A DNA stretch of 64,000 nt from Eledone cirrhosa (GCA_964016885.1 OZ024759.1:3224001-3288000), one strand, 5' to 3'. Positions 22,181-64,000 are shown, counted from the first letter of the stretch. A program made the numbers and translations. The notes: generated by a model not told the origin, from the sequence alone.

Positions 22181-22183
<3 letters not shown>

Positions 22184-22392
22184 GAAGAATGATAACATTT
22201 CAAGCAAAGAGTTTAATTAGGTAATGACTTACAAATTTGTTTCAGTATATATTTAATATAATATTAATATATTTTGTAATATTATTAACTAATTATTATA
22301 ATTAGCGCTTCAGGCTTTGTCTATATACTGAAACAAATTTGTAAGTCATTACCTAATTAAACTCTTTGCTTGAAATTTTATCACTCTTCGTT
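22181..22392. repeat. ~70-bp inverted repeat, possible Penelope-type inverted pLTR remnant
   Basis: 22181-22251 is the reverse complement of 22322-22392 with few mismatches. The arm carries GAAACAAATTTGTA, which resembles a hammerhead stem III. Confidence 0.7.
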
Positions 22393-22589
22393 TTGAATTT
22401 CTCCTAAGTATTCAATACTCTGTTGAGAAATACATTTTACATAAACAGTCTTTGTACCATTTATACGGTATTAATTACTTATATTTATATATATATATAT
22501 ATATATAGCGTATGATTAGAACTGTGTTTATTATTAATATTTTAATGGATTTAATGAAAAATTTTAGGTGTTCATATATATATTCTAAA

Positions 22590-25376: not shown

Positions 25377-26333
25377 ACTAGACATGAAAAATGCGCAAGC
25401 TCAAAAGTGCCACAGAATGTTATAATAAACCTTCAAAAGTGTGGGACTAGAGTTGTTGCTAAAAAATATTGTAATCATTATATATCGTACATTCTGTGGC
25501 ATCCTTTATAAAAATAGCTTAAACCAACGAAGCCTTTATTTTTACGCTATTTCACTTAGTTAATTCTTAGAGTGTAACATATAAAAATAAATACATCTAT
25601 GTTTAATGTAATAACAGCTATAAATAATTACGTAATATTATTATCATATACTCATAGTAACAAAATAATTGTGTTGAAAATTAATATGATGCTTATATGA
25701 ACGATCAAATCTATAATGATAATTTCTTAAATATACTAATAGTAAAATAATTTAGTTATCTATTGTTACATTTTCATAGAACTATAATATTAACAATCGT
25801 ATTGCATTATCAAATTTTTATCACTACAAACTTTCATATTGGAATTACCTTAAGCCACTTATTATTACTTCGCTTTCGTACTTTTACAGCTGTAGATATT
25901 GCGCTGTATCTTATATCTAATATCAATATCTCATGGTAATTTGCATGCAGTGTAAAATAGGTTTATTAATAACTTTAATATGAAATGTATTATACAGGGC
26001 TGCGGAGTCGGCCAAAAATTGACTGGCTCCAACTCAGGATCCGATATTCCCTTATTTCCTAAATTTCAGCTCCGCAGCTCTGTTATTATATTAATTAATT
26101 TATTTTATAGTTGTAAATCATATTTTTATATGTTACACTCTAAGAATTAACTAAGTGAAATAGCGTAAAAATAAAGGCTTCGTTGGTTTAAGCTATTTTT
26201 ATAAAGGATGCCACAGAATGTACGATATATAATGATTACAATATTTTTTAGCAACAACTCTAGTCCCACACTTTTGAAGGTTTATTATAACATTCTGTGG
26301 CACTTTTGAGCTTGCGCATTTTTCATGTCTAGT
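25377..26333. repeat. 213-bp apparently perfect inverted repeat (fold-back structure)
   Basis: 25377-25589 is the reverse complement of 26121-26333, with a 531-bp spacer. Confidence 0.9.
25995..26082. mobile_element. 88-bp hAT-type MITE
   Basis: TIRs CAGGGCTGCGGAG / CTCCGCAGCTCTG (12/13), with 8-bp flanks GTATTATA / TTATTATA (7/8 TSD). Confidence 0.75.
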
Positions 26334-26804: not shown

Positions 26805-26842
<38 letters not shown>

Positions 26843-26847
26843 CGTCA

Positions 26848-26951
26848 ATCATCATCATTATCATCATCGTTTAACGTCCGTGTTCCACGCTTGCATGGGT
26901 TTGGACGGGAGTTTTCCCACTTGAGGCAAGAGTGATTGTCTTGCTCGCATA
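26848..26951 (-). mobile_element. RTE/SINE 3' terminus contiguous with the satellite
   Basis: Minus strand: ...CAGTCCTATGCGAGCAAGAC...CCCATGCAAGCGTGGAACACGGACGTTAAACGATGATGAT, homologous to 3141-3240 and 3940-4050. Confidence 0.9.
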
Positions 26952-29900
26952 GGACTGTCTGGCGGGTTTTCTACAGCTGGATGCCCTTCCTAACACCAAC
27001 CACATTTACAGTGTGGACTGGGAGATTTTTACCGTGTTGCCTACACGGCCACATTACAGCGTGGACTGTCTGGCGGGTTTTCTACAGCTGGATGCCCTTC
27101 CTAACACCAACCACATTTAGTGTGGGGTTGCGAGGTTTTTACCGTGTTGCCTACACGGCCACATTACAGCATGGACTGTCTGGCGGGTTTTTTTACGGCT
27201 GGATGCCCTTCCTAACACCAACCACATTTACAGTGTGGGGCTGGAAGGTTTTCACCGTGTTGCCTACACGGCCACATTACAGCGTGGACTGTCTGGGGGG
27301 TTTTCTACAGCTGGATGCCCTTCCTAACACCAACTACGTTTACAGTGTGGAACTGGGAGGTCTTTACCGTGTTGCCTACACGGCCACATTACAGCATGGA
27401 CTGTCTGGCGGGTTTTCTACGGCTGGATGCCCTTCCTAACACCAACCACATTTACAGTGTGGGCTGGAAGGTTTTTACCGTGTTGCCTACACGGCCACAT
27501 TACAGCGTGGACTGTCTGGCGGGTTTTCTACAGCTGGATGCCCTTCCTAACACCAACTACGTTTACAGTCTGGAACTGGGAGGTTTTTCCCGTGTTGCCT
27601 ACACGGCCACATTACAGCGTGGACTGTCTGGCGGGTTTTCTACGGCTGGATGCCCTTCCTAACACCAACCACATTTACAGTGTGGGCTGGGAGGTTTTTA
27701 CCGTGTTGCCTACACGGCCACATTACAGCGTGGACTGTCTGGCGGGTTTTCTACAGCTGGATGCCCTTCCTAACACCAATCACATTTACAGTGTGGACTG
27801 GGAGATTTTTACCGTGTTGCCTACACGGCCACAATACAGCGTGGACTGTCTGGCGGGTTTTCTACGGCTGGATGCCCTTCCTAGCACCAACAACATTTAC
27901 AGTGTGGACTGGGAGGATTTTACCGTGTTGCCTACACGGCCACATTACAGCGTGGACTGTCTGGCGGGTTTTCTACGGCTGGATGCCCTTCCTAACACCA
28001 ACCACATTTACAGTCTGGACTGGGAGGTTTTTACCGTGTTGCCTACAAGGCCACATTACAGCGTGGACTGTCTGGCGGGTTTTCTACGGCTGGATGCCCT
28101 TCCTAACACCAACCACATTTACATTGTGGACTGGGAGATTTTTACCGTGTTGCCTACACGGCCACATTACAGCGTGGACTGACTGGCGGGTTTTCTACAG
28201 CTGGATGCTCTTCCTAACACCAACCACATTTACAGTGTGGACTGGGAGATTTTTACCGTGTTGCCTACACGGCCACATTACAGCGTGGACTGTCTGGCGG
28301 GTTTTCTACGGCTGGATGCCCTTCCTAACACCAACCACATTTAGTGTGGGGTTGCGTGGTTTTTACAGTGTTGCCTACACGGCCACATTACAGCGTGGAC
28401 TGTCTGGCGGGTTTTCTACGGCTGGATGCCCTTCCTAACACCAACCACATTTACAGTGTGGGGCTGGGAGGTTTTTACCGTGTTGCCTACACGGCCACAT
28501 TACAGCGTGGACTGTCTGGCGGGTTTTCTATGGCTGGATGCCCTTTCTAACACCAACCACATTTACAGTGTGGGCTGGGAGGTTTTTACCGTGTTGCCTA
28601 CACGGCCACATTACAGCGTGGACTGTCTGGCGGGTTTTCTACAGCTGGATGCCCTTCCTAACACCAACTACGCTTACAGTGTGGAACTAGGAGGTTTTTT
28701 CCGTGTTGCCTACACGGCCACATTACAGCGTGGACTGTCTGGCGGGTTTTCTACAGCTGGATGCCCTTCCTAACACCAACCACATTTACAGTGTGGACTG
28801 GGAGATTTTTACCGTGTTGCCTACACGGCCACATTACAGCGTGGACTGTCTGGCGGGTTTTCTACGGCTGGATGCCCTTCCTAACACCAACCACATTTAC
28901 AGTGTGGACTGGGAGGTTTTTACCGTGTTGCCTACACGGCCACATTACAGCGTGGACTGTCTGGCGGGTTTTCTACGGCTGGATGCCCTTCCTAACACCA
29001 ACTACGTTTACAGTGTTGAACTGGGAGGTTTTTAGCGTGTTGCCTACACGGCCACATTACAGCGTGGACTGTCTGGCGGGTTTTCTACAGCTGGATGCCC
29101 TTCCTAACACCAACCACATTTACAGTGTGGACTGGGAGATTTTTACCGTGTTGCCTACACGGCCACATTACAGCGTGGACTGTCTGGCGGGTTTTCTACG
29201 GCTGGATGCCCTTCCTAACACCAACCACATTTACAGAGTGGACTGGGAGGTTTTTACCGTGTTGCCTACACGGCCACATTACAGCGTGGACTGTCTGGCG
29301 GGTTATCTACGGCTGGATGCCCTTCCTAACACCAACCACATTTACAGTGTGGACTGGGAGGTTTTTACCGTGTTGCCTACACGGCCACATTACAGCGTGG
29401 ACTGTCTGGCGGGTTTTCTACGGCTGGATGCCCTTCCTAACACCAACCACATTTACATTGTGGACTGGGAGATTTTTACCGTGTTGCCTACACGGCCAGA
29501 TTACAGCGTGGACTGACTGGCGGGTTATCTACGGCTGGATGCCCTTCCTAACACCAACCACATTTACAGTGTGGGGCTGGGAGGTTTTTACCGTGTTGCC
29601 TACACGGCCACATTACAGCGTGGACTGTCTGGCGGGTTTTCTATGGCTGGATGCCCTTTCTAACACCAACCACATTTACAGTGTGGGCTGGGAGGTTTTT
29701 ACCGTGTTGCCTACACGGCCACATTACAGCGTGGACTGTCTGGCGGGTTTTCTACAGCTGGATGCCCTTCCTAACACCAACTACGCTTACAGTGTGGAAC
29801 TGGGAGGTTTTTTCCGTGTTGCCTACACGGCCACATTACAGCGTGGACTGTCTGGCGGGTTTTCTACAGCTGGATGCCCTTCCTAACACCAACCACATTT

Positions 29901-32900
29901 ACAGTGTGGACTGGGAGATTTTTACCGTGTTGCCTACACGGCCACATTACAGCGTGGACTGTCTGGCGGGTTTTCTACGGCTGGATGCCCTTCCTAACAC
30001 CAACCACATTTACAGTGTGGACTGGGAGGTTTTTACCGTGTTGCCTACACGGCCACATTACAGCGTGGACTGTCTGGCGGGTTTTCTACGGCTGGATGCC
30101 CTTCCTAACACCAACTACGTTTACAGTGTTGAACTGGGAGGTTTTTAGCGTGTTGCCTACACGGCCACATTACAGCGTGGACTGTCTGGCGGGTTTTCTA
30201 CAGCTGGATGCCCTTCCTAACACCAACCACATTTACAGTGTGGACTGGGAGATTTTTACCGTGTTGCCTACACGGCCACATTACAGCGTGGACTGTCTGG
30301 CGGGTTTTCTACGGCTGGATGCCCTTCCTAACACCAACCACATTTACAGAGTGGACTGGGAGGTTTTTACCGTGTTGCCTACACGGCCACATTACAGCGT
30401 GGACTGTCTGGCGGGTTATCTACGGCTGGATGCCCTTCCTAACACCAACCACATTTACAGTGTGGACTGGGAGGTTTTTACCGTGTTGCCTACACGGCCA
30501 CATTACAGCGTGGACTGTCTGGCGGGTTTTCTACGGCTGGATGCCCTTCCTAACACCAACCACATTTACATTGTGGACTGGGAGATTTTTACCGTGTTGC
30601 CTACACGGCCAGATTACAGCGTGGACTGACTGGCGGGTTATCTACGGCTGGATGCCCTTCCTAACACCAACCACATTTACAGTGTGGACTGGGAGGTTTT
30701 TACCGTGTTGCCTACACGGCCACATTACAGCGTGGACTGTCTGGCGGGTTTTCTACGGCTGGATGCCCTTCCTAACACCAACCACATTTACATTGTGGAC
30801 TGGGAGATTTTTACCGTGTTGCCTACACGGCCACATTACAGTGTGGACTGACTGGCGGGTTTTCTACAGCTGGATGCTCTTCCTAACACCAACCACATTT
30901 ACAGTGTGGACTGGGAGATTTTTACCGTGTTGCCTACACGGCCACATTACAGCGTGGACTGTCTGGCGGGTTTTCTACAGCTGGATGCCCTTCCTAACAC
31001 CAAGCACATTTACAGTGTGGACTGGGAGATTTTTACCGTGTTGCCTACACGGCCACATTACAGCGTGGACTGTCTGGCGGGTTTTCTACGGCTGGATGCC
31101 CTTCCTAACACCAACCACATTTACAGTGTGGACTGGGAGGTTTTTGCCGTGTTGCCTACACGGCCACATTACAGCGTGGACTGTCTGGTGGGTTTTCTAC
31201 GGCTGGATGCCCTTCCTAACACCAACCACATTTAGTGTGGGGTTGCGAGGTTTTTACTGTGTTGCTTACACGGCCACATTATAGCGTGGACTGTCTGGCG
31301 GGTTTTCTACGGCTGGATGCCCTTCCTAACACCAACCACATTTACAGTGTGGACTGGGAGGTTTTTACCGTGTTGCCTACACGGCCACATTACAGCGTGG
31401 ACTGTCTGGCGGGTTATCTACGGCTGGATGCCCTTCCTAACACCAACCACATTTACAGTGTGGACTGGGAGGTTTTTACCGTGTTGCCTACACGGCCACA
31501 TTACAGCGTGGACTGTCTGGCGGGTTTTCTACGGCTGGATGCCCTTCCTAACACCAACCACATTTACATTGTGGACTGGGAGATTTTTACCGTGTTGCCT
31601 ACACGGCCACATTACAGCGTGGACTGACTGGCGGGTTTTCTACAGCTGGATGCTCTTCCTAACACCAACCACATTTACAGTGTGGACTGGGAGATTTTTA
31701 CCGTGTTGCCTACACAGCCACATTACAGCGTGGACTGTCTTGCGGGTTTTCTACGGCTGGATGCCCTTCCTAACACCAACCACATTTACGGTGTGGGGCT
31801 GGGAGGATTTTACTGTGTTGCCTACACAGCCACATTACAGCGTGGACTGTCTGGCGGGTTTTCTACAGCTGGATGCCCTTCCTAACACCAACCACATTTA
31901 CAGTGTGGACTGGGAGATTTTTACCGTGTTGCCTACACGGCCACATTACAGCGTGGACTGTCTGGCGTGTTTTCTACGGCTGGATGCCCTTCCTAACACC
32001 AACCACATTTACAGTGTGGACTGGGAGATTTTTACCGTGTTGCCTACACGGCCACATTACAGCGTGGACTGTCTGGCGGGTTTTCTACAGCTGGATGCCC
32101 TTCCTAACACCAACCACATTTACATTGTGGACTGGGAGGTTTTTACCGTGTTGCCTACACGGCCACATTACAGCGTGGACTGTCTGGCGGGTTTTCTACG
32201 GCTGGATGCCCTTCCTAACACCAACCACGTTTACAGTGTGGACTGGGAGGTTTTTACCGTGTTGCCTACACGGCCACATTACAGCGTGGACTGTCTGGCG
32301 GGTTTTCTACGGCTGGATGCCCTTCCTAACACCAACCACATTTACAGTGTGGGCTGGGAGGTTTTTACCGTGTTGCCTACACGGCCACATTACAGCGTGG
32401 ACTGTCTGGCGGGTTTTCTACGGCTGGATGCCCTTCCTAACACCAACCACATTTACAGTGTGGTGCTGGGAGGTTTTTACTGTGTTGCCTCCACAGCCAC
32501 ATTACAGCGTGGACTGTCTGGCGGGTTTTCTACAGCTGGATGCCCTTCCTAACACCAACTACGTTTACAGTGTGGAACTGGGAGGTTTTTACCGTGTTGC
32601 CTACACGGCCACATTACAGCGTGGACTGTCTGGCGGGTTTTCTACGGCTGGATGCCCTTCCTAACACCAACCACATTTACAGTGTGGTGCTGGGAGGTTT
32701 TTACTGTGTTGCCTCCACAGCCACATTACAGCGTGGACTGTCTGGCGGGTTTTCTACAGCTGGATGCCCTTCCTAACACCAACTACGTTTACAGTGTGGA
32801 ACTGGGAGGTTTTTACCGTGTTGCCTACACGGCCACATTACAGCGTGGACTGTCTGGCGGGTTTTCTACGGCTGGATGCCCTTCCTAACACCAACCACAT

Positions 32901-35900
32901 TTACAGTGTGGGCTGGGAGGTTTTTACCGTGTTGCCTACACGGCCACATTACAGCGTGGACTGTCTGGCGGGTTTTCTACAGCTGGATGCCCTTCCTAAC
33001 ACCAACCACATTTACAGTGTGGACTGGGAGATTTTTACCGTGTTGCCTACACGGCCACATTACAGCGTGGACTGTCTGGCGGGTTTTCTACGGCTGGATG
33101 CCCTTCCTAACACCAACCACATTTACAGTGTGGACTGGGAGGTTTTTACCGTGTTGCCTACACGGCCACATTACAGCGTGGACTGTCTGGCGGGTTTTCT
33201 ACGGCTGGATGCCCTTCCTAACACCAACTACGTTTACAGTGTTGAACTGGGAGGTTTTTAGCGTGTTGCCTACACGGCCACATTACAGCGTGGACTGTCT
33301 GGCGGGTTTTCTACAGCTGGATGCCCTTCCTAACACCAACCACATTTACAGTGTGGACTGGGAGATTTTTACCGTGTTGCCTACACGGCCACATTACAGC
33401 GTGGACTGTCTGGCGGGTTTTCTACGGCTGGATGCCCTTCCTAACACCAACCACATTTACAGAGTGGACTGGGAGGTTTTTACCGTGTTGCCTACACGGC
33501 CACATTACAGCGTGGACTGTCTGGCGGGTTATCTACGGCTGGATGCCCTTCCTAACACCAACCACATTTACAGTGTGGACTGGGAGGTTTTTACCGTGTT
33601 GCCTACACGGCCACATTACAGCGTGGACTGTCTGGCGGGTTTTCTACGGCTGGATGCCCTTCCTAACACCAACCACATTTACATTGTGGACTGGGAGATT
33701 TTTACCGTGTTGCCTACACGGCCAGATTACAGCGTGGACTGACTGGCGGGTTATCTACGGCTGGATGCCCTTCCTAACACCAACCACATTTACAGTGTGG
33801 GGCTGGGAGGTTTTTACCGTGTTGCCTACACGGCCACATTACAGCGTGGACTGTCTGGCGGGTTTTCTATGGCTGGATGCCCTTTCTAACACCAACCACA
33901 TTTACAGTGTGGGCTGGGAGGTTTTTACCGTGTTGCCTACACGGCCACATTACAGCGTGGACTGTCTGGCGGGTTTTCTACAGCTGGATGCCCTTCCTAA
34001 CACCAACTACGCTTACAGTGTGGAACTGGGAGGTTTTTTCCGTGTTGCCTACACGGCCACATTACAGCGTGAACTGTCTGGCGGGTTTTCTACAGCTGGA
34101 TGCCCTTCCTAACACCAACCACATTTACAGTGTGGACTGGGAGATTTTTACCGTGTTGCCTACACGGCCACATTACAGCGTGGACTGTCTGGCGGGTTTT
34201 CTACGGCTGGATGCCCTTCCTAACACCAACCACATTTACAGTGTGGACTGGGAGGTTTTTACCGTGTTGCCTACACGGCCACATTACAGCGTGGACTGTC
34301 TGGCGGGTTTTCTACGGCTGGATGCCCTTCCTAACACCAACTACGTTTACAGTGTTGAACTGGGAGGTTTTTAGCGTGTTGCCTACACGGCCACATTACA
34401 GCGTGGACTGTCTGGCGGGTTTTCTACAGCTGGATGCCCTTCCTAACACCAACCACATTTACAGTGTGGACTGGGAGATTTTTACCGTGTTGCCTACACG
34501 GCCACATTACAGCGTGGACTGTCTGGCGGGTTTTCTACGGCTGGATGCCCTTCCTAACACCAACCACATTTACAGAGTGGACTGGGAGGTTTTTACCGTG
34601 TTGCCTACACGGCCACATTACAGCGTGGACTGTCTGGCGGGTTATCTACGGCTGGATGCCCTTCCTAACACCAACCACATTTACAGTGTGGACTGGGAGG
34701 TTTTTACCGTGTTGCCTACACGGCCACATTACAGCGTGGACTGTCTGGCGGGTTTTCTACGGCTGGATGCCCTTCCTAACACCAACCACATTTACATTGT
34801 GGACTGGGAGATTTTTACCGTGTTGCCTACACGGCCAGATTACAGCGTGGACTGACTGGCGGGTTATCTACGGCTGGATGCCCTTCCTAACACCAACCAC
34901 ATTTACAGTGTGGACTGGGAGGTTTTTACCGTGTTGCCTACACGGCCACATTACAGCGTGGACTGTCTGGCGGGTTTTCTACGGCTGGATGCCCTTCCTA
35001 ACACCAACCACATTTACATTGTGGACTGGGAGATTTTTACCGTGTTGCCTACACGGCCACATTACAGTGTGGACTGACTGGCGGGTTTTCTACAGCTGGA
35101 TGCTCTTCCTAACACCAACCACATTTACAGTGTGGACTGGGAGATTTTTACCGTGTTGCCTACACGGCCACATTACAGCGTGGACTGTCTGGCGGGTTTT
35201 CTACAGCTGGATGCCCTTCCTAACACCAAGCACATTTACAGTGTGGACTGGGAGATTTTTACCGTGTTGCCTACACGGCCACATTACAGCGTGGACTGTC
35301 TGGCGGGTTTTCTACGGCTGGATGCCCTTCCTAACACCAACCACATTTACAGTGTGGACTGGGAGGTTTTTGCCGTGTTGCCTACACGGCCACATTACAG
35401 CGTGGACTGTCTGGTGGGTTTTCTACGGCTGGATGCCCTTCCTAACACCAACCACATTTAGTGTGGGGTTGCGAGGTTTTTACTGTGTTGCTTACACGGC
35501 CACATTATAGCGTGGACTGTCTGGCGGGTTTTCTACGGCTGGATGCCCTTCCTAACACCAACCACATTTACAGTGTGGACTGGGAGGTTTTTACCGTGTT
35601 GCCTACACGGCCACATTACAGCGTGGACTGTCTGGCGGGTTATCTACGGCTGGATGCCCTTCCTAACACCAACCACATTTACAGTGTGGACTGGGAGGTT
35701 TTTACCGTGTTGCCTACACGGCCACATTACAGCGTGGACTGTCTGGCGGGTTTTCTACGGCTGGATGCCCTTCCTAACACCAACCACATTTACATTGTGG
35801 ACTGGGAGATTTTTACCGTGTTGCCTACACGGCCACATTACAGCGTGGACTGACTGGCGGGTTTTCTACAGCTGGATGCTCTTCCTAACACCAACCACAT

Positions 35901-38900
35901 TTACAGTGTGGACTGGGAGATTTTTACCGTGTTGCCTACACGGCCACATTACAGCGTGGACTGTCTTGCGGGTTTTCTACGGCTGGATGCCCTTCCTAAC
36001 ACCAACCACATTTACGGTGTGGGGCTGGGAGGATTTTACTGTGTTGCCTACACAGCCACATTACAGCGTGGACTGTCTGGCGGGTTTTCTACAGCTGGAT
36101 GCCCTTCCTAACACCAACCACATTTACAGTGTGGACTGGGAGATTTTTACCGTGTTGCCTACACGGCCACATTACAGCGTGGACTGTCTGGCGGGTTTTC
36201 TACGGCTGGATGCCCTTCCTAACACCAACCACATTTACAGTGTGGACTGGGAGATTTTTACCGTGTTGCCTACACGGCCACATTACAGCGTGGACTGTCT
36301 GGCGGGTTTTCTACAGCTGGATGCCCTTCCTAACACCAACCACATTTACATTGTGGACTGGGAGGTTTTTACCGTGTTGCCTACACGGCCACATTACAGC
36401 GTGGACTGTCTGGCGGGTTTTCTACGGCTGGATGCCCTTCCTAACACCAACCACGTTTACAGTGTGGACTGGGAGGTTTTTACCGTGTTGCCTACACGGC
36501 CACATTACAGCGTGGACTGTCTGGCGGGTTTTCTACGGCTGGATGCCCTTCCTAACACCAACCACATTTACAGTGTGGGCTGGGAGGTTTTTACCGTGTT
36601 GCCTACACGGCCACATTACAGCGTGGACTGTCTGGCGGGTTTTCTACGGCTGGATGCCCTTCCTAACACCAACCACATTTACAGTGTGGTGCTGGGAGGT
36701 TTTTACTGTGTTGCCTCCACAGCCACATTACAGCGTGGACTGTCTGGCGGGTTTTCTACAGCTGGATGCCCTTCCTAACACCAACTACGTTTACAGTGTG
36801 GAACTGGGAGGTTTTTACCGTGTTGCCTACACGGCCACATTACAGCGTGGACTGTCTGGCGGGTTTTCTACGGCTGGATGCCCTTCCTAACACCAACCAC
36901 ATTTACAGTGTGGTGCTGGGAGGTTTTTACTGTGTTGCCTCCACAGCCACATTACAGCGTGGACTGTCTGGCGGGTTTTCTACAGCTGGATGCCCTTCCT
37001 AACACCAACTACGTTTACAGTGTGGAACTGGGAGGTTTTTACCGTGTTGCCTACACGGCCACATTACAGCGTGGACTGTCTGGCGGGTTTTCTACGGCTG
37101 GATGCCCTTCCTAACACCAACCACATTTACAGTGTGGGCTGGGAGGTTTTTACCGTGTTGCCTACACGGCCACATTACAGCGTGGACTGTCTGGCGGGTT
37201 TTCTACAGCTGGATGCCCGTCCTAACACCAACTACGCTTACAGTGAGGAACTGGGAGGTTATTACCGTGTTGCCTACACGACCACATTACAGCGTGGACT
37301 GTCTGGCGGGTTTTCTACAGCTGGATGCCCTTCCTAACACCAACCACATTTACAGTGTGGACTGGGAGATTTTTACCGTGTTGCCTACACGGCCACATTA
37401 CAGCGTGGACTGTCTGGCGGGTTTTCTACGGCTGGATGCCCTTCCTAACACCAACCACATTTACAGTGTGGACTGGGAGGTTTTTACCGTGTTGCCTACA
37501 CGGCCACATTACAGCGTGGACTGTCTGGCGGGTTTTCTACGGCTGGATGCCCTTCCTAACACCAACCACATTTACAGTGTGGACTGGGAGGTTTTTACCG
37601 TGTTGCCTACACGGCCACATTACAGCGTGGACTGTCTGGCGGGTTTTCTACGGCTGGATGCCCTTCCTAACACCAACCACATTTAGTGTGGGGTTGCGAG
37701 GTTTTTACTGTGTTGCTTACACGGCCACATTATAGCGTGGACTGTCTGGCGGGTTTTCTACGGCTGGATGCCCTTCCTAACACCAACCACATTTACAGTG
37801 TGGACTGGGAGGTTTTTACCGTGTTGCCTACACGGCCACATTACAGCGTGGACTGTCTGGCGGGTTATCTACGGCTGGATGCCCTTCCTAACACCAACCA
37901 CATTTACAGTGTGGACTGGGAGGTTTTTACCGTGTTGCCTACACGGCCACATTACAGCGTGGACTGTCTGGCGGGTTTTCTACGGCTGGATGCCCTTCCT
38001 AACACCAACCACATTTACATTGTGGACTGGGAGATTTTTACCGTGTTGCCTACACGGCCACATTACAGCGTGGACTGACTGGCGGGTTTTCTACAGCTGG
38101 ATGCTCTTCCTAACACCAACCACATTTACAGTGTGGACTGGGAGATTTTTACCGTGTTGCCTACACGGCCACATTACAGCGTGGACTGTCTGGCGGGTTT
38201 TCTACGGCTGGATGCCCTTCCTAACACCAACCACATTTACAGTGTGGGGCTGGGAGGTTTTTACTGTGTTGCCTACACAGCCACATTACAGCGTGGACTG
38301 TCTGGCGGGTTTTCTACAGCTGGATGCCCTTCCTAACACCAACTACGTTTACAGTGTGGAACTGGGAGGTTTTTACCGTGTTTCCTACACGGCCACATTA
38401 CAGCGTGGACTGTCTGGCGGGTTTTCTACGGCTGGATGCCCTTCCTAACACCAACCACATTTACAGTGTGGGCTGGGAGGTTTTTACCGTGTTGCCTACA
38501 CGGCCACATTACAGTGTGGACTGTCTGGCGGGTTTTCTACAGCTGGATGCCCTTCCTAACACCAACTACGCTTACAGTGTGGAACTGGGAGGTTTTTACC
38601 GTGTTGCCTACACGGCCACATTACAGCGTGGACTGTCTGGCGGGTTTTCTACAGCTGGATGCCCTTCCTAACACCAACCACATTTACAGTGTGGACTGGG
38701 AGTTTTTACCGTGTTGCCTACACGGCCACATTACAGCGTGGACTGTCTGGCGGGTTTTCTACGGCTGGATGCCCTTCCTAACACCAACCACATTTACAGT
38801 GTGGACTGGGAGGTCTTTACCGTGTTCCCTACACGGCCACATTACAGCGTGGACTGTCTGGCGGGTTTTCTACGGCTGGATGCCCTTCCTAACACCAACC

Positions 38901-50900: not shown

Positions 50901-53900
50901 CCAACCACATTTACAGTGTGGACTGGGAGATTTTTACCGTGTTGCCTACACGGCCACATTACAGCGTGGACTGTCTGGCGGGTTTTCTACGGCTGGATGC
51001 CCTTCCTAACACCAACCACATTTAGTGTGGGGTTGCGAGGTTTTTACTGTGTTGCCTACACGGCCACATTACAGCGTGGACTGTCTGGCCGGTTTTCTAC
51101 GGCTGGATGCCCTTCCTAACACCAACTACGCTTACAGTGTGGAACTGGGAGGTTTTTACCGTGTTGCCTACACGGCCACATTACAGCGTGGACTGTCTGG
51201 CGGGTTTTCTACAGCTGGATGCCCTTCCTAACACCAACCACATTTACATTATGGACTGGGAGATTTTTACCGTGTTGCCTACACGGCCACATTACAGCGT
51301 GGACTGTCTGGCGGGTTTTCTACAGCTGGATGCCCTTCCTAACACCAACCACATTTACAGTGTTGACTGGGAGATTTTTACCGTGTTGCCTACACGGCCA
51401 CATTACAGCGTGGACTGTCTGGCGGGTTTTCTACGGCTGGATGCCCTTCCTAACACCAACCACATTTACAGTGTGGACTGGGAGGTTTTTACCGTGTTGC
51501 CTACACGGCCACATTACAGCGTGGACTGTCTGGCGGGTTTTCTACAGCTGGATGCCCTTCCTAACACCAACTACGTTTACAGTGTGGAACTGGGAGGTTT
51601 TTCCCGTGTTGCCTACACGGCCACATTACAGCGTGGACTGTCTGGCGGGTTTTCTACAGCTGGATGCCCTTCCTAACACCAACCACATTTACAGTGTGGA
51701 CTGGGAGATTTTTACCGTGTTGCCTACACGGCCACATTACAGCGTGGACTGTCTGGCGGGTTTTCTACGGCTGGATGCACTTCCTAACACCAACCACATT
51801 TACATTGTGGACTGGGAGATTTTTACCGTGTTGCCTACACGGCCACATTACAGCGTGGACTGACTGGCGGGTTTTCTACAGCTGGATGCTCTTCCTAACA
51901 CCAACCACATTTACAGTGTGGACTGGGAGATTTTTACCGTGTTGCCTACACGGCCACATTACAGCGTGCACTGTCTGGCGGGTTTTCTACGGCTGGATGC
52001 CCTTCCTAACACCAACCACATTTACAGTGTGGGGCTGGGAGGTTTTTACTGTGTTGCCTACACAGCCACATTACAGCGTGGACTGTCTGGCGGGTTTTCT
52101 ACAGCTGGATGCCCTTCCTAACACCAACTACGTTTACAGTGTGGGCTGGGAGGTTTTTACCGTGTTGCCTACACGGCCACATTACAGTGTGGACTGTCTG
52201 GCGGGTTTTCTACAGCTGGATGCCCTTCCTAACACCAACTACGCTTACAGTGTGGGACTGGGAGGTTTTTACCGCGTTGCCTACACGGCCACATTACAGC
52301 GTGGACTGTCTGGCGGGTTTTCTACAGCTGGATGCCCTTCCTAACACCAACCACATTTACAGTGTGGACTGGGAGATTTTTACCGTGTTGCCTACACGGC
52401 CACATTACAGCGTGGACTGTCTGGCGGGTTTTCTACGGCTGGATGCCCTTCCTAACACCAATCACATTTACAGTGTGGACTGGGAGGTTTTTACCGTGTT
52501 GCCTACACGGCCACATTACAGCGTGGACTGTCTGGTGGGTTTTCTACGGCTGGATGCCCTTCCTAACACCAACCACATTTACAGTGTGGACTGGGAGGTT
52601 TTTACCGTGTTGCCTACAAGGCCACATTACAGCGTGGACTGTCTGGCGGGTTTTCTACGGCTGGATGCCCTTCCTAACACCAACCACATTTACATAGTGG
52701 ACAGGGAGATTTTTACCGTGTTGCCTACACGGCCACATTACAGCGTGGACTGTCTGGCGGGTTTTCTACAGCTGGATGCCCTTCCTAACACCAACCACAT
52801 TTACAGTGTGGACTGGGAGGTTTTTACCGTGTTGCCTACACGGCCACATTACAGCGTGGACTGTCTGGCGGGTTATCTACGGCTGGATGCCCTTCCTAAC
52901 ACCAACCACATTTACAGTGTGGAACTGGGAGGTTTTTACCGTGTTGCCTACACGGCCACATTACAGCGTGGACTGTCTGGCGGGTTTTCTACGGCTGGAT
53001 GCTATTCCTAACACCAACCACATTTACATTTTGGACTGGGAGATTTTTACCGTGTTGCCTACACGGCCACATTACAGCGTGGACTGACTGGCGGGTTTTC
53101 TACAGCTGGATGCTCTTCCTAACACCAACCACATTTACAGTGTGGACTGGGAGATTTTTACCGTGTTGCATACACGGCCACATTACAGAGTGGTCTGTCT
53201 GGCGGGTTTTCTACGGCTGGATGCCCTTCCTAACACCAACCACATTTAGTGTGGGGTTGCGAGGTTTTTACTGTGTTGCCTACACGGCCACATTACAGCG
53301 TGGACTGTCTGGCCGGTTTTCTACGGCTGGATGCCCTTCCTAACACCAACTACGCTTACAGTGTGGAACTGGGAGGTTTTTACCGTGTTGCCTACACGGC
53401 CACATTACAGCGTGGACTGTCTGGCGGGTTTTCTACAGCTGGATGCCCTTCCTAACACCAACCACATTTACATTGTGGACTGGGAGATTTTTACCGTGTT
53501 GCCTACACGGCCACATTACAGCGTGGACTGTCTGGCGGGTTTTCTACAGCTGGATGCCCTTCCTAACACCAACCACATTTACAGTGTTGACTGGGAGATT
53601 TTTACCGTGTTGCCTACACGGCCACATTACAGCGTGGACTGTCTGGCGGGTTTTCTACGGCTGGATGCCCTTCCTAACACCAACCACATTTACAGTGTGG
53701 ACTGGGAGGTTTTTACCGGGTTGCCTACACGGCCACATTACAGCGTGGACTGTCTGGCGGGTTATCTACGGCTGGATGCCCTTCCTAACACCAACCACAT
53801 TTACAGTGTGGACTGGGGGGTTTTTACCGGGTTGCCTACACGGCCACATTACAGCGTGGACTGTCTGGCGGGTTATCTACGGCTGGATGCCCTTCCTAAC

Positions 53901-56900
53901 ACCAACCACATTTACAGTGTGGACTGGGAGGTTTTTACCGTGTTGCCTACACGGCCACATTACTGCGTGGACTGTCTGGCGGGTTTTCTACAGCTGGATG
54001 CCCTTCCTAACACCAACTACGTTTACAGTGTGGAACTGGGAGGTTTTTCCCGTGTTGCCTACACGGCCACATTACAGCGTGGACTGTCTGGCGGGTTTTC
54101 TACAGCTGGATGCCCTTCCTAACACCAACCACATTTACAGTGTGGACTGGGAGGTTTTTACCGTGTTGCCTACACGGCCACATTACAGCGTGGACTGTCT
54201 GGCGGGTTTTCTACAGCTGGATGCCCTTCCTAACACCAACTACGTTTACAGTGTGGAACTGGGAGGTTTTTCCCGTGTTGCCTACACGGCCACATTACAG
54301 CGTGGACTGTCTGGCGGGTTTTCTACAGCTGGATGCCCTTCCTAACACCAACCACATTTACAGTGTGGACTGGGAGATTTTTACCGTGTTGCCTACACGG
54401 CCACATTACAGCGTGGACTGTCTGGCGGGTTTTCTACGGCTGGATGCCCTTCCTAACACCAACCACATTTACATTGTGGACTAGGAGATTTTTACCGTGT
54501 TGCCTACACGGCCACATTACAGCGTGGACTGACTGGCGGGTTTTCTACAGCTGGATGCTCTTCCTAACACCAACCACATTTACAGTGTGGGCTGGGAGGT
54601 TTTTACCGTGTTGCCTACACGGCCACATTACAGTGTGGACTGTCTGGCGGGTTTTCTACAGCTGGATGCCCTTCCTAACACCAACTACGCTTACATTGTG
54701 GAACTGGTAGGTTTTTACCGCGTTGCCTACACGGCCACATTACAGCGTGGACTGTCTGGCGGGTTTTCTACGGCTGGATGCCCTTCCTAACACCAACCAC
54801 ATTTACAGTGTGGACTGGGAGATTTTTACCGTGTTGCCTACACGGCCACATTACAGCGTGGACTGTCTGGCGGGTTTTCTACGGCTGGATGCCCTTCCTA
54901 ACACCAATCACATTTACAGTGTGGACTGGGAGGTTTTTACCGTGTTGCCTACACGGCCACATTACAGCATGGACTGTCTGGTGGGTTTTCTACGGCTGGA
55001 TGCCCTTCCTAACACCAACCACATTTACAGTGTGGACTGGGAGGTTTTTACCGTGTTGCCTACAAGGCCACATTACAGCGTGGACTGTCTGGCGGGTTTT
55101 CTACGGCTGGATGCCCTTCCTAACACCAACCACATTTACATAGTGGACAGGGAGATTTTTACCGTGTTGCCTACACGGCCACATTACAGCGTGGACTGTC
55201 TGGCCGGTTTTCTACGGCTGGATGCCCTTCCTAACACCAACTACGCTTACAGTGTGGAACTGGGAGGTTTTTACCGTGTTGCCTACACGGCCACATTACA
55301 GCGTGGACTGTCTGGCGGGTTTTCTACAGCTGGATGCCCTTCCTAACACCAACCACATTTACATTGTGGACTGGGATATTTTTACCGTGTTGCCTACACG
55401 GCCACATTACAGCGTGGACTGTCTGGCGGGTTTTCTACAGCTGGATGCCCTTCCTAACACCAACCACATTTACAGTGTTGACTGGGAGATTTTTACCGTG
55501 TTGCCTACACGGCCACATTACAGCGTGGACTGTCTGGCGGGTTTTCTACGGCTGGATGCCCTTCCTAACACCAACCACATTTACAGTGTTGACTGGGAGG
55601 TTTTTACCGGGTTGCCTACACGGCCACATTACAGCGTGGACTGTCTGGCGGGTTATCTACGGCTGGATGCCCTTCCTAACACCAACCACATTTACAGTGT
55701 GGACTGGGAGGTTTTTACCGGGTTGCCTACACGGCCACATTACAGCGTGGACTGTCTGGCGGGTTATCTACGGCTGGATGCCCTTCCTAACACCAACCAC
55801 ATTTACAGTGTGGACTGGGAGGTTTTTACCGTGTTGCCTACACGGCCACATTACTGCGTGGACTGTCTGGCGGGTTTTCTACAGCTGGATGCCCTTCCTA
55901 ACACCAACTACGTTTACAGTGTGGAACTGGGAGGTTTTTCCCGTGTTGCCTACACGGCCACATTACAGCGTGGACTGTCTGGCGGGTTTTCTACAGCTGG
56001 ATGCCCTTCCTAACACCAACCACATTTACAGTGTGGACTGGGAGGTTTTTACCGTGTTGCCTACACGGCCACATTACAGCGTGGACTGTCTGGCGGGTTT
56101 TCTACAGCTGGATGCCCTTCCTAACACCAACTACGTTTACAGTGTGGAACTGGGAGGTTTTTCCCGTGTTGCCTACACGGCCACATTACAGCGTGGACTG
56201 TCTGGCGGGTTTTCTACAGCTGGATGCCCTTCCTAACACCAACCACATTTACAGTGTGGACTGGGAGATTTTTACCGTGTTGCCTACACGGCCACATTAC
56301 AGCGTGGACTGTCTGGCGGGTTTTCTACGGCTGGATGCCCTTCCTAACACCAACCACATTTACATTGTGGACTGGGAGATTTTTACCGTGTTGCCTACAC
56401 GGCCACATTACAGCGTGGACTGACTGGCGGGTTTTCTACAGCTGGATGCTCTTCCTAACACCAACCACATTTACAGTGTGGGCTGGGAGGTTTTTACCGT
56501 GTTGCCTACACGGCCACATTACAGTGTGGACTGTCTGGCGGGTTTTCTACAGCTGGATGCCCTTCCTAACACCAACTACGCTTACAGTGTGGAACTGGGA
56601 GGTTTTTACCGCGTTGCCTACACGGCCACATTACAGCGTGGACTGTCTGGTGGGTTTTCTACGGCCTGATGCCCTTCCTAACACCAACCACATTTACAGT
56701 GTGGACTGGGAGGTTTTTACCGTGTTGCCTACAAGGCCACATTACAGCGTGGACTGTCTGGCGGGTTTTCTACGGCTGGATGCCCTTCCTAACACCAACC
56801 ACATTTACATAGTGGACAGGGAGATTTTTACCGTGTTGCCTACACGGCCACATTACAGCGTGGACTGTCTGGCGGGTTTTCTACAGCTGGATGCCCTTCC

Positions 56901-59900
56901 TAACACCAACCACATTTACAGTGTGGACTGGGAGATTTTTACCGTGTTGCCTACACGGCCACATTACAGCGTGGACTGTCTGGCGGGTTTTCTACGGCTG
57001 GATGCCCTTCCTAACACCAACCACATTTACAGTGTGGACTGGGAGGTTTTTACCGGGTTGCCTACACGGCCACATTACAGCGTGGACTGTCTGGCGGGTT
57101 ATCTACGGCTGGATGCCCTTCCTAACACCAACCACATTTACAGTGTGGACTGGGAGGTTTTTACCGTGTTGCCTACACGGCCACATTACAGCGTGGACTG
57201 ACTGGCGGGTTTTCTACAGCTGGATGCTCTTCCTAACACCAACCACATTTACAGTGTGGGCTGGGAGGTTTTTACCGTGTTGCCTACACGGCCACATTAC
57301 AGTGTGGACTGTCTGGCGGGTTTTCTACAGCTGGATGCCCTTCCTAACACCAACTACGCTTACAGTGTGGAACTGGGAGGTTTTTACCGCGTTGCCTACA
57401 CGGCCACATTACAGCGTGGACTGTCTGGTGGGTTTTCTACGGCCTGATGCCCTTCCTAACACCAACCACATTTACAGTGTGGACTGGGAGGTTTTTACCG
57501 TGTTGCCTACAAGGCCACATTACAGCGTGGACTGTCTGGCGGGTTTTCTACGGCTGGATGCCCTTCCTAACACCAACCACATTTACATAGTGGACAGGGA
57601 GATTTTTACCGTGTTGCCTACACGGCCACATTACAGCGTGGACTGTCTGGCGGGTTTTCTACAGCTGGATGCCCTTCCTAACACCAACCACATTTACAGT
57701 GTGGACTGGGAGATTTTTACCGTGTTGCCTACACGGCCACATTACAGCGTGGACTGTCTGGCGGGTTTTCTACGGCTGGATGCCCTTCCTAACACCAACC
57801 ACATTTACAGTGTGGACTGGGAGGTTTTTACCGGGTTGCCTACACGGCCACATTACAGCGTGGACTGTCTGGCGGGTTATCTACGGCTGGATGCCCTTCC
57901 TAACACCAACCACATTTACAGTGTGGGGCTGGGAGGTTTTTACTGTGTTGCCTACACAGCCACATTACAGCGTGGACTGTCTGGCGGGTTTTCTACAGCT
58001 GGATGCCCTTCCTAACACCAACTACGTTTACAGTGTGGGCTGGGAGGTTTTTACCGTGTTGCCTACACGGCCACATTACAGTGTGGACTGTCTGGCGGGT
58101 TTTCTACAGCTGGATGCCCTTCCTAACACCAACTACGCTTACAGTGTGGGACTGGGAGGTTTTTACCGCGTTGCCTACACGGCCACATTACAGCGTGGAC
58201 TGTCTGGCGGGTTTTCTACAGCTGGATGCCCTTCCTAACACCAACCACATTTACAGTGTGGACTGGGAGATTTTTACCGTGTTGCCTACACGGCCACATT
58301 ACAGCGTGGACTGTCTGGCGGGTTTTCTACGGCTGGATGCCCTTCCTAACACCAATCACATTTACAGTGTGGACTGGGAGGTTTTTACCGTGTTGCCTAC
58401 ACGGCCACATTACAGCGTGGACTGTCTGGTGGGTTTTCTACGGCTGGATGCCCTTCCTAACACCAACCACATTTACAGTGTGGACTGGGAGGTTTTTACC
58501 GTGTTGCCTACAAGGCCACATTACAGCGTGGACTGTCTGGCGGGTTTTCTACGGCTGGATGCCCTTCCTAACACCAACCACATTTACATAGTGGACAGGG
58601 AGATTTTTACCGTGTTGCCTACACGGCCACATTACAGCGTGGACTGTCTGGCGGGTTTTCTACAGCTGGATGCCCTTCCTAACACCAACCACATTTACAG
58701 TGTGGACTGGGAGGTTTTTACCGTGTTGCCTACACGGCCACATTACAGCGTGGACTGTCTGGCGGGTTATCTACGGCTGGATGCCCTTCCTAACACCAAC
58801 CACATTTACAGTGTGGAACTGGGAGGTTTTTACCGTGTTGCCTACACGGCCACATTACAGCGTGGACTGTCTGGCGGGTTTTCTACGGCTGGATGCTATT
58901 CCTAACACCAACCACATTTACATTTTGGACTGGGAGATTTTTACCGTGTTGCCTACACGGCCACATTACAGCGTGGACTGACTGGCGGGTTTTCTACAGC
59001 TGGATGCTCTTCCTAACACCAACCACATTTACAGTGTGGACTGGGAGATTTTTACCGTGTTGCATACACGGCCACATTACAGAGTGGTCTGTCTGGCGGG
59101 TTTTCTACGGCTGGATGCCCTTCCTAACACCAACCACATTTAGTGTGGGGTTGCGAGGTTTTTACTGTGTTGCCTACACGGCCACATTACAGCGTGGACT
59201 GTCTGGCCGGTTTTCTACGGCTGGATGCCCTTCCTAACACCAACTACGCTTACAGTGTGGAACTGGGAGGTTTTTACCGTGTTGCCTACACGGCCACATT
59301 ACAGCGTGGACTGTCTGGCGGGTTTTCTACAGCTGGATGCCCTTCCTAACACCAACCACATTTACATTGTGGACTGGGAGATTTTTACCGTGTTGCCTAC
59401 ACGGCCACATTACAGCGTGGACTGTCTGGCGGGTTTTCTACAGCTGGATGCCCTTCCTAACACCAACCACATTTACAGTGTTGACTGGGAGATTTTTACC
59501 GTGTTGCCTACACGGCCACATTACAGCGTGGACTGTCTGGCGGGTTTTCTACGGCTGGATGCCCTTCCTAACACCAACCACATTTACAGTGTGGACTGGG
59601 AGGTTTTTACCGGGTTGCCTACACGGCCACATTACAGCGTGGACTGTCTGGCGGGTTATCTACGGCTGGATGCCCTTCCTAACACCAACCACATTTACAG
59701 TGTGGACTGGGGGGTTTTTACCGGGTTGCCTACACGGCCACATTACAGCGTGGACTGTCTGGCGGGTTATCTACGGCTGGATGCCCTTCCTAACACCAAC
59801 CACATTTACAGTGTGGACTGGGAGGTTTTTACCGTGTTGCCTACACGGCCACATTACTGCGTGGACTGTCTGGCGGGTTTTCTACAGCTGGATGCCCTTC

Positions 59901-62900
59901 CTAACACCAACTACGTTTACAGTGTGGAACTGGGAGGTTTTTCCCGTGTTGCCTACACGGCCACATTACAGCGTGGACTGTCTGGCGGGTTTTCTACAGC
60001 TGGATGCCCTTCCTAACACCAACCACATTTACAGTGTGGACTGGGAGGTTTTTACCGTGTTGCCTACACGGCCACATTACAGCGTGGACTGTCTGGCGGG
60101 TTTTCTACAGCTGGATGCCCTTCCTAACACCAACTACGTTTACAGTGTGGAACTGGGAGGTTTTTCCCGTGTTGCCTACACGGCCACATTACAGCGTGGA
60201 CTGTCTGGCGGGTTTTCTACAGCTGGATGCCCTTCCTAACACCAACCACATTTACAGTGTGGACTGGGAGATTTTTACCGTGTTGCCTACACGGCCACAT
60301 TACAGCGTGGACTGTCTGGCGGGTTTTCTACGGCTGGATGCCCTTCCTAACACCAACCACATTTACATTGTGGACTAGGAGATTTTTACCGTGTTGCCTA
60401 CACGGCCACATTACAGCGTGGACTGACTGGCGGGTTTTCTACAGCTGGATGCTCTTCCTAACACCAACCACATTTACAGTGTGGGCTGGGAGGTTTTTAC
60501 CGTGTTGCCTACACGGCCACATTACAGTGTGGACTGTCTGGCGGGTTTTCTACAGCTGGATGCCCTTCCTAACACCAACTACGCTTACATTGTGGAACTG
60601 GGAGGTTTTTACCGCGTTGCCTACACGGCCACATTACAGCGTGGACTGTCTGGCGGGTTTTCTACGGCTGGATGCCCTTCCTAACACCAACCACATTTAC
60701 AGTGTGGACTGGGAGATTTTTACCGTGTTGCCTACACGGCCACATTACAGCGTGGACTGTCTGGCGGGTTTTCTACGGCTGGATGCCCTTCCTAACACCA
60801 ATCACATTTACAGTGTGGACTGGGAGGTTTTTACCGTGTTGCCTACACGGCCACATTACAGCATGGACTGTCTGGTGGGTTTTCTACGGCTGGATGCCCT
60901 TCCTAACACCAACCACATTTACAGTGTGGACTGGGAGGTTTTTACCGTGTTGCCTACAAGGCCACATTACAGCGTGGACTGTCTGGCGGGTTTTCTACGG
61001 CTGGATGCCCTTCCTAACACCAACCACATTTACATAGTGGACAGGGAGATTTTTACCGTGTTGCCTACACGGCCACATTACAGCGTGGACTGTCTGGCCG
61101 GTTTTCTACGGCTGGATGCCCTTCCTAACACCAACTACGCTTACAGTGTGGAACTGGGAGGTTTTTACCGTGTTGCCTACACGGCCACATTACAGCGTGG
61201 ACTGTCTGGCGGGTTTTCTACAGCTGGATGCCCTTCCTAACACCAACCACATTTACATTGTGGACTGGGATATTTTTACCGTGTTGCCTACACGGCCACA
61301 TTACAGCGTGGACTGTCTGGCGGGTTTTCTACAGCTGGATGCCCTTCCTAACACCAACCACATTTACAGTGTTGACTGGGAGATTTTTACCGTGTTGCCT
61401 ACACGGCCACATTACAGCGTGGACTGTCTGGCGGGTTTTCTACGGCTGGATGCCCTTCCTAACACCAACCACATTTACAGTGTTGACTGGGAGGTTTTTA
61501 CCGGGTTGCCTACACGGCCACATTACAGCGTGGACTGTCTGGCGGGTTATCTACGGCTGGATGCCCTTCCTAACACCAACCACATTTACAGTGTGGACTG
61601 GGAGGTTTTTACCGGGTTGCCTACACGGCCACATTACAGCGTGGACTGTCTGGCGGGTTATCTACGGCTGGATGCCCTTCCTAACACCAACCACATTTAC
61701 AGTGTGGACTGGGAGGTTTTTACCGTGTTGCCTACACGGCCACATTACTGCGTGGACTGTCTGGCGGGTTTTCTACAGCTGGATGCCCTTCCTAACACCA
61801 ACTACGTTTACAGTGTGGAACTGGGAGGTTTTTCCCGTGTTGCCTACACGGCCACATTACAGCGTGGACTGTCTGGCGGGTTTTCTACAGCTGGATGCCC
61901 TTCCTAACACCAACCACATTTACAGTGTGGACTGGGAGGTTTTTACCGTGTTGCCTACACGGCCACATTACAGCGTGGACTGTCTGGCGGGTTTTCTACA
62001 GCTGGATGCCCTTCCTAACACCAACTACGTTTACAGTGTGGAACTGGGAGGTTTTTCCCGTGTTGCCTACACGGCCACATTACAGCGTGGACTGTCTGGC
62101 GGGTTTTCTACAGCTGGATGCCCTTCCTAACACCAACCACATTTACAGTGTGGACTGGGAGATTTTTACCGTGTTGCCTACACGGCCACATTACAGCGTG
62201 GACTGTCTGGCGGGTTTTCTACGGCTGGATGCCCTTCCTAACACCAACCACATTTACATTGTGGACTGGGAGATTTTTACCGTGTTGCCTACACGGCCAC
62301 ATTACAGCGTGGACTGACTGGCGGGTTTTCTACAGCTGGATGCTCTTCCTAACACCAACCACATTTACAGTGTGGGCTGGGAGGTTTTTACCGTGTTGCC
62401 TACACGGCCACATTACAGTGTGGACTGTCTGGCGGGTTTTCTACAGCTGGATGCCCTTCCTAACACCAACTACGCTTACAGTGTGGAACTGGGAGGTTTT
62501 TACCGCGTTGCCTACACGGCCACATTACAGCGTGGACTGTCTGGTGGGTTTTCTACGGCCTGATGCCCTTCCTAACACCAACCACATTTACAGTGTGGAC
62601 TGGGAGGTTTTTACCGTGTTGCCTACAAGGCCACATTACAGCGTGGACTGTCTGGCGGGTTTTCTACGGCTGGATGCCCTTCCTAACACCAACCACATTT
62701 ACATAGTGGACAGGGAGATTTTTACCGTGTTGCCTACACGGCCACATTACAGCGTGGACTGTCTGGCGGGTTTTCTACAGCTGGATGCCCTTCCTAACAC
62801 CAACCACATTTACAGTGTGGACTGGGAGATTTTTACCGTGTTGCCTACACGGCCACATTACAGCGTGGACTGTCTGGCGGGTTTTCTACGGCTGGATGCC

Positions 62901-64000
62901 CTTCCTAACACCAACCACATTTACAGTGTGGACTGGGAGGTTTTTACCGGGTTGCCTACACGGCCACATTACAGCGTGGACTGTCTGGCGGGTTATCTAC
63001 GGCTGGATGCCCTTCCTAACACCAACCACATTTACAGTGTGGACTGGGAGGTTTTTACCGTGTTGCCTACACGGCCACATTACAGCGTGGACTGACTGGC
63101 GGGTTTTCTACAGCTGGATGCTCTTCCTAACACCAACCACATTTACAGTGTGGGCTGGGAGGTTTTTACCGTGTTGCCTACACGGCCACATTACAGTGTG
63201 GACTGTCTGGCGGGTTTTCTACAGCTGGATGCCCTTCCTAACACCAACTACGCTTACAGTGTGGAACTGGGAGGTTTTTACCGCGTTGCCTACACGGCCA
63301 CATTACAGCGTGGACTGTCTGGTGGGTTTTCTACGGCCTGATGCCCTTCCTAACACCAACCACATTTACAGTGTGGACTGGGAGGTTTTTACCGTGTTGC
63401 CTACAAGGCCACATTACAGCGTGGACTGTCTGGCGGGTTTTCTACGGCTGGATGCCCTTCCTAACACCAACCACATTTACATAGTGGACAGGGAGATTTT
63501 TACCGTGTTGCCTACACGGCCACATTACAGCGTGGACTGTCTGGCGGGTTTTCTACAGCTGGATGCCCTTCCTAACACCAACCACATTTACAGTGTGGAC
63601 TGGGAGATTTTTACCGTGTTGCCTACACGGCCACATTACAGCGTGGACTGTCTGGCGGGTTTTCTACGGCTGGATGCCCTTCCTAACACCAACCACATTT
63701 ACAGTGTGGACTGGGAGGTTTTTACCGGGTTGCCTACACGGCCACATTACAGCGTGGACTGTCTGGCGGGTTATCTACGGCTGGATGCCCTTCCTAACAC
63801 CAACCACATTTACAGTGTGGACTGGGAGGTTTTTACCGTGTTGCCTACACGGCCACATTACAGCGTGGACTGTCTGGCGGGTTTTCTACAGCTGGATGCC
63901 CTTCCTAACACCAACTACGTTTACAGTGTGGAACTGGGAGGTTTTTCCCGTGTTGCCTACACGGCCACATTACAGCGTGGACTGTCTGGCGGGTTTTCTA
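26952..64000. repeat. 111-bp satellite array (~330 monomers, continues past the window end) with higher-order repeats
   Basis: Consensus GGACTGTCTGGCGGGTTTTCTACRGCTGGATGCCCTTCCTAACACCAACCACATTTACAGTGTGGACTGGGAGRTTTTTACCGTGTTGCCTACACGGCCACATTACAGCGT. Head-to-tail in one orientation, with 110-112-bp variants and no visible insertions. Confidence 0.99.

Follow-up and report, generated by a model that had tools for sequence, protein, structure and literature searches.

The closest described systems are the SINE-derived satellites sSat1-3 of squamates (Vassetzky et al. 2023, PMC10702118), most of which keep one SINE terminus; such satellites occur at tens to thousands of loci, with 320, about 950 and >1200 units. 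Satellites have also arisen from retroelement 3' UTRs, including PisTR-A (Ogre), 18HT (HeT-A/TART) and the common cetacean satellite (L1) (PMC9659126), and further examples from retroelement 3' regions are given in PMC6947457. Bipartite RTE-derived elements and SINE bodies were described by Kojima (2018; PMC5786205).

We analyzed a 64,000-nt stretch of the Eledone cirrhosa assembly, hereafter the window, which holds a satellite array joined to the 3' end of a retroposon. The array shows three of the features by which an sSat is recognized (PMC10702118): its unit is a retroposon part (70-290 nt there, 111 nt here), it has at least four homogeneous middle units, and one terminal unit continues to the element's terminus. 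Homogeneity is also alike, with 94% similarity in the 320-unit cobra locus and 94% matches over 333 units here. Unlike sSat1-3, the array has an invertebrate RTE-type parent, an apparently leader-derived unit and a unit boundary at a 7-nt repeat between paralogous sub-units. As with PisTR-A, 18HT and the cetacean satellite, a non-coding 3' part of a retroelement became a satellite, but no RTE is named among those cases ("RTE" has 0 occurrences in the accessible text of PMC9659126), and Ogre is an LTR element. The parent shares its clade and its octopus host with RTE-2_OV of Octopus vulgaris (PMC9115989), and one related protein, P0008, also carries that species name; in contrast, the 3' UTR of RTE-2_OV is described as mostly microsatellite. 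The core motif of our unit was not found in the supplementary files of PMC9115989 covered by the search, and "satellite" has no occurrence in the accessible text of PMC12988792. A literature search that covered few subscription journals found no octopus or RTE-derived satellite of such a kind.

The initial annotation had proposed that the array may mark the birth site of the satellite and had called the preserved junction unusually clear. Neither view is supported. SINE-derived satellites commonly retain one terminus, and do so at as many as thousands of loci (PMC10702118), so this layout is no evidence of a birth site, and the relatives in the window that were thought to make the junction clear are older cousins, at 74-83%.

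The array and its junction with a retroposon 3' end

Analysis with TRF placed the array at 26952-64000 on the minus strand, with a period of 111, 333.2 copies and 94% matches; it reaches the end of the window and is open there. Monomer splitting gave 333 units of 110-113 nt, with 22 nt remaining at the window edge. None of the 333 units scored low, which, together with the short remainder, indicates that no sequence is inserted within the array. The window contains no N. There are 121 distinct unit sequences, differing pairwise by 5.5 columns on average and from their own consensus by a mean of 2.6% substitutions.

Each unit has two sub-units, A (48 nt; 27015-27062 in the last unit) and B (63 nt; 26952-27014), both on the minus strand. 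A contains a hairpin that is present also in RTE leaders. The local alignment score between A and B was equalled by 1 of 2000 shuffles, identifying them, by similarity, as paralogous sub-units of the 111-bp unit. The unit boundary carries a 7-nt direct repeat, ACAGTCC (27063-27069, minus strand; second copy at 26952-26958), which ends 293 of the 333 units.

Read along the minus strand, the last unit passes without a gap into a 41-nt linker (26911-26951) specific to the sub-family, a 45-nt terminal segment (26866-26910) and a (GAT)n tail (26848-26868), which reads as seven triplets, one of them variant. The proposals that a >37-kb array, amplified ~330-fold, abuts a retroelement 3' end, and that it runs unbroken on the minus strand into that end and its (GAT)n at 26951-26848, were thus borne out: 333 units continue unbroken, gapless and in register, into the linker and tail. 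The stretch 26818-26930 matched the 3' end of an RTE in locus L013 (74% over 115 nt, E 5e-10), and the corresponding end of a dispersed copy, at 3194-3239, matched the end of L011 (83%). A stem-loop is predicted in the terminal segment, with a fold z of -2.3; 5 of 200 shuffles were equally good. From its homology to the ends of single-ORF elements encoding EN and RT, and from its short-repeat tail, the 26951-26848 end is identifiable as an RTE-type retroposon 3' end. The clade name RTE is provisional, based on known features of such elements and on PMC5786205.

Retrozyme repeats are tandem repeats with a self-cleaving ribozyme within the unit. No ribozyme family was present among the 72 Rfam matches (E ≤1) in window positions 1-28000, and the fold z of the 111-bp unit was -0.39. 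On these two results a retrozyme was rejected.

Other repeats were seen in the flank. A MITE-like element of 957 bp with perfect 213-nt terminal inverted repeats lies at 25377-26333, ~0.5 kb from the array tail, and the window also holds a minisatellite (1154-2054; units of ~23-27 bp, ~36 copies) and an imperfect palindrome of 214 nt (79%; 22180-22393).

Dispersed relatives and the single-unit parent form

The unit with its tail matched window positions 3027-3240 (83%, E 3e-59) and 3840-4050 (74%, E 7e-29), and the unit matched 10134-10236 (81%) and 12480-12581 (77%). It had been claimed that the same end follows all four monomer-like segments. All four are present, but the 41-nt linker occurs only in the 3030 and 3840 copies, with none in the 10067 and 12430 copies. 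Two further copies (~17205-17405 and ~18970-19190) derive from a segmental duplication of 7.2 kb. This tandem duplication (5999-12800 / 13163-19330, offset ~7.2 kb) is 98% identical over the first 5.3 kb and carries SINE and RTE fragments.

The 3030 copy (2993-3240, plus strand) has the order A'-A-B-linker-tail, in which A' is an extra upstream A-type sub-unit ending in ACAGTCC, like B of both the array and the 3840 copy. Compared with the array end, it is 88% identical in A, 89% in B, 65% in the linker and 84% in the terminal segment. It was ruled out as a product of the array because its A is preceded by A' rather than by B. The 3840 copy (3538-4050, plus strand; 74% to unit and tail) consists of an RTE ORF C-terminus (3538-3672), a C-rich spacer and A-B-linker-tail. 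The full EN+RT protein P0006, which carries PF03372 and PF00078, aligned through its C-terminus to this ORF part (42%, E 2e-6 within 27 kb), and the ORF part itself gave no Pfam match; the alignment upholds the RTE ORF previously claimed to precede this 3' end. A full phmmer search with the peptide 3499-3690 returned 32 matches, the best being P0008, while a word-index protein search returned 0 matches among 26 candidates and the protein Atlas solely unnamed clusters with low recognition. A stop-free frame at 3499-3927 spans the RTE C-terminus, the spacer, A and most of B, and may be due to chance.

The 10067 copy (10067-10400, minus strand; second copy ~17205-17570) is a SINE in which a tRNA-like head (Rfam tRNA, 27.6 bits, under the gathering score of 29) is followed by A-B and the tail, without a linker. 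The 12430 copy (12226-12640, plus strand; second copy ~18773-19190) is an internally deleted RTE in which the endonuclease N-terminus is followed by A-A-B-tail, again without a linker and again with the extra A-type sub-unit upstream. On the question of whether the parent was a SINE or a LINE, the tRNA-headed copy is without the linker, and one linker-bearing copy follows an RTE ORF. Judged by their divergence, all of these relatives are older cousins (74-83%) and not the parent of the array. Fragments of a different non-LTR element lie at 7430-9460 and 14590-16500 on the minus strand (RVT_1 match, E 1.6e-11). The frame following that match, which has no Pfam match, resembles a restriction-like endonuclease in its motif.

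A closer parent form was found in public sequence data. Four of the 24 matching runs (X1, X5, X8 and X22, the last being RAD reads from a second sample under the same species label) were aligned to 26832-27095, and the public records compared were the longest 24 of >36,000. Parent copies depart from the array sequence at 27069, where the 7-nt repeat has its outer edge: 75 X1 contigs and 2 X8 contigs had loose ends there, and the X8 consensus beyond this point corresponds to the A' of the 3030 copy. Among the matches listed, X5 and X8 records ending at 27069 or 27062 had 2-4 differences from the last unit in 74-94 nt, except for one with 8 and one with 6, and records of linker and tail had 1-3 differences in 59-80 nt, except for one with 11. 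Record 19 of X8 bridges B (43 nt) to the linker (37 nt) with 2 differences in 80 nt, and the junction of the array has the same register as this record and the 3030 and 3840 copies. The parent order is thus A'-A-B-linker-tail with a single A-B unit. In the array, successive ACAGTCC copies delimit exactly one unit, and the last unit joins the linker in the parent's register. Parent order, boundary repeat and junction register are direct observations.

Read depth indicated which form is common. The ratio between the depths of A and the linker was 1.03 in X1, 0.80 in X22, 0.89 in X8 and 1.69 in X5, and the depth past 27069, across the tandem junction, was 0.23, 0.017, 0.087 and 0.12 of that of A in the same four runs. 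With A close to the linker in depth and the tandem junction in the minority, the single-unit form is the common one. In X8, depth was flat at 189.1 over 27048-27069 and 16.4 beyond, which by arithmetic corresponds to one record crossing the tandem junction; by a 31-letter rule, no record among the matches listed bridged it. In the best records among the matches listed, the single-unit parent form is, in sequence, 96-98% identical to the array unit. That contigs so close to the unit exit at ACAGTCC into A' argues for the direction from element to satellite. This direction had been proposed in the initial annotation, and it is sustained by unit boundaries that coincide with the parent's 7-nt direct repeat and by a tail and units about equally near the parent form: X5 and X8 records among the matches listed had 2-3 differences from the last unit in 84-94 nt and 1-3 from linker and tail in 59-66 nt, similar to the 2.6% mean distance of the units from their consensus.

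The parental sub-family is abundant, with a linker depth one third that of the universal core in X1. Only X1 had depth in the flank beyond the tail, and X1 is possibly the source sample. Ten other organism labels hold 28-45% of the sampled words, and six RNA-type runs hold 5-7%. X8 mirrors the X1 depth ratios at ~1/12,000 of the level, and the linker in X5 has 0.03% of that run's core depth. The signal in X5 and X8, which carry other species labels, may therefore stem from traces of DNA from the window's own species or a near relative, and these runs were not counted as presence of the parent in other species.

Origin of the unit core

The core of B (26969-27001, minus strand) was used for a scan with an exact degenerate motif, which yielded 21 metagenome loci; in the viral contigs scanned, there were 0 matches. 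In 6 of the 21 loci an RTE ORF match starts 79-217 nt downstream of the core on the same strand, one (L006) has a mid-RT fragment upstream of the core, one has an RTE match 4 kb off on the opposite strand, and 13 have no RTE match. By eye, an RTE-like tail lies within ~110 nt after the core in L006, L007 and L019. In L013, the first letters of the core are also the last ones of a twister-P1 match (45.8 bits; gathering score 67.2). This ribozyme-like sequence (L013 2499-2577, minus strand), below the gathering score, forms the 5' end of an RTE with an internal deletion and immediately precedes the leader core. In L022, a canonical element passes directly from ORF to tail, and after it comes a second copy whose leader contains the core; the L022 RTE is near-complete and 60% identical to P0006. 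L022-L029 are contigs of prokaryotic MAGs with eukaryote-type RTE or SINE-like repeats bearing the same core, and they are likely to be animal DNA binned into prokaryotic MAGs.

From its position in the metagenome loci, L013 and L022, the core of B is assigned, on sequence grounds, to a conserved RTE 5'-leader motif of other animals, which in the present lineage is sited 3' of the ORF, as in the 3840 copy. One of the 32 related proteins, P0032, continues past the RTE C-terminus into translated B, while P0033 seemed by eye to be an ORF followed by A and failed to score. The description of the array unit as a 3' UTR segment therefore holds for its location 3' of the ORF, but not for its nature, since its core elsewhere is a 5'-leader motif and not an ordinary 3' UTR.

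The module is of the bipartite type described in PMC5786205, in which an RTE 5'-UTR piece is joined to an RTE 3' end; the joined piece also serves as a SINE body downstream of a tRNA head, an arrangement that the 10067 copy shows. The combination that characterizes a bipartite RTE, a 5'-UTR-derived segment with a 3' end, was found in the motif loci with an RTE-like tail and in the window module. Unlike those elements, the module here lies also 3' of an RTE ORF and is amplified in tandem. The core motif had 0 exact-string matches in the accessible supplement of PMC5786205. An origin from the Ceph domain or a Ceph-SINE was rejected, with 0 exact-string matches there and with SepiaSINE and OegopSINE differing by eye.

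When seven sequences are compared, the two predicted A-B hairpins vary in a compensatory manner, with 83% pairing, a level that 0 of 500 shuffles reached; the sequences are related, two of them near duplicates, and the structure itself was derived from them. A pseudoknot in A, suggested by eye in L004, L019 and some of the dispersed copies, is not proposed here: its second stem is poor in the array, and the hairpins alone were counted.

These data bear on the reverse scenario, in which a satellite existed first and one of its units was taken up by a retroelement. The canonical RTE end is without an A-B insert (L022, and P0013 and P0017, where the ORF leads directly to the tail), so the segment must have been gained at some point. 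No support was found for a satellite as its source, however: the core recurs in unrelated animals as a motif of RTE leaders, older cousins at 74-83% have a single B, and the A hairpin has compensatory changes among dispersed elements and no constraint in the array. Capture is largely refuted already, and we give it almost no credence.

Growth of the array and its significance

No fixed multi-unit period was found in the array; lags of 1-12 units gave 5.2-5.7 differences, compared with the mean of 5.5, and a TRF period of 445, considered as a higher-order repeat, is merely a multiple of 111. Instead, the array contains nested block duplications at lags of 7, 10, 17, 33, 38 and 53 units. The two longest, both on the minus strand, are a tandem duplication of 38 units (28732-37183, as 28732-32957 / 32958-37183), with 3 differences in 4226 nt, and a duplication at a lag of 53 units (52080-63755, as 52080-57861 / 57974-63755), with 1 difference in 5782 nt. 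Such near-identity would mean that these blocks are very recent duplications or partly assembly artefacts, as it is also what over-expanded assemblies look like. That the assembler produced the array or part of its length is nevertheless very improbable, given the 121 distinct units, the nesting of the duplications and the depth past 27069 in X22 (~36 reads, 17 of them fitting two places).

The long blocks do not include the 14 units nearest the tail, which have 8 private variants, or 0.57 per unit, versus 0-0.25 per unit elsewhere. These units thus resemble an old array edge, unlike a recent join, which speaks against a boundary made by ectopic homologous recombination, in which an array from elsewhere would have been joined through A-B to a dispersed copy, giving an in-register tail. 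The abundance of the sub-family (the linker having a third of the universal core depth in X1) would offer many partners for such an event, and the window flank is itself rearranged by the 7.2-kb duplication, but the tail and the units are equally near the parent form. We consider this origin of the boundary improbable.

Substitution types per position did not differ between proposed paired (1.03) and unpaired (0.88) positions (permutation p 0.85), so that selection on RNA structure within the array was rejected, the stems varying like other positions. At CpG positions there were 1.6 substitution types, versus 0.86 elsewhere. Mutations accumulate neutrally in the array, which expands through irregular block duplications; no host function is indicated for it.

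Taken together, the array is an A-B satellite of a young, abundant RTE-type retroposon sub-family and probably grew inside one copy by unequal exchange. In a first step, the end of B would have mis-paired with the end of the paralogous A', duplicating A-B by unequal crossover or replication slippage; short flanking repeats are known as a trigger of tandem duplication (PMC6947457). Repeated unequal exchange would then have copied blocks of 7-53 units and homogenized the interior, sparing the 14 tail-side units, with the original linker and tail staying attached to the array's end. By now the array would be neutral DNA in which the element's RNA structure is no longer maintained. These exchange steps and the single copy are what we infer from the arrangement, and the A-B duplication may date to this locus or to an ancestor of this copy. 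Against this reading, edge units do not resemble the 3030 copy more closely (95.8) than units of the interior do (96.7).

Sites 27025, 27017, 27004 and 26975 vary in the array and also among dispersed copies, which fits a single founder only with recurrent mutation or gene conversion. These shared variants would also suit a daughter array: A-B would have been duplicated in another copy, from which a tailed version with several units reached this locus by retrotransposition, or by DNA duplication, and then expanded further. An intact tail with a predicted fold, and the many squamate loci with one kept terminus (PMC10702118), fit this reading as well. The tandem junction, at ~9% (X8) and 23% (X1) of A depth, likely exceeds what one 333-unit array would give; one very long array could account for it as well. 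Summed X1 depth at the junction was 0.63 million, versus 5-24 for 7 of 8 X1 contigs among the matches listed, which may point to a genomic total of tandem units well above 333, although a summed depth is no copy number. On the other hand, neither a second array nor a tailed short multimer was present in the 27-kb flank or the 29 fetched loci, and the 31-letter bridge over the tandem junction is absent among the matches listed. We regard a daughter array as unlikely, if the most serious competitor to growth inside one copy.

On present evidence, the locus reveals no new mechanism or host function. The kept-tail configuration was already known; new here are the resolved unit boundary and the leader origin of the unit. 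The array adds an invertebrate, RTE-type case to the retroposon-derived satellites. A unit boundary pinned to a 7-nt repeat between paralogous parental sub-units provides a concrete, testable start for a satellite, and an RTE 5'-leader module is found relocated to the 3' end of elements in this lineage. A whole assembly would allow a clean test between growth in place and spread by retrotransposition. As a doubtful extension, to which we give slightly less weight than to a daughter array, an array that retains the RTE recognition tail could be a self-spreading satellite, its read-through transcripts being reverse-transcribed by the partner RTE. If true, such spreading would seed new 5'-truncated arrays, each with a tail and a target-site duplication, and would explain why retroposon-derived satellites so often retain just one terminus.
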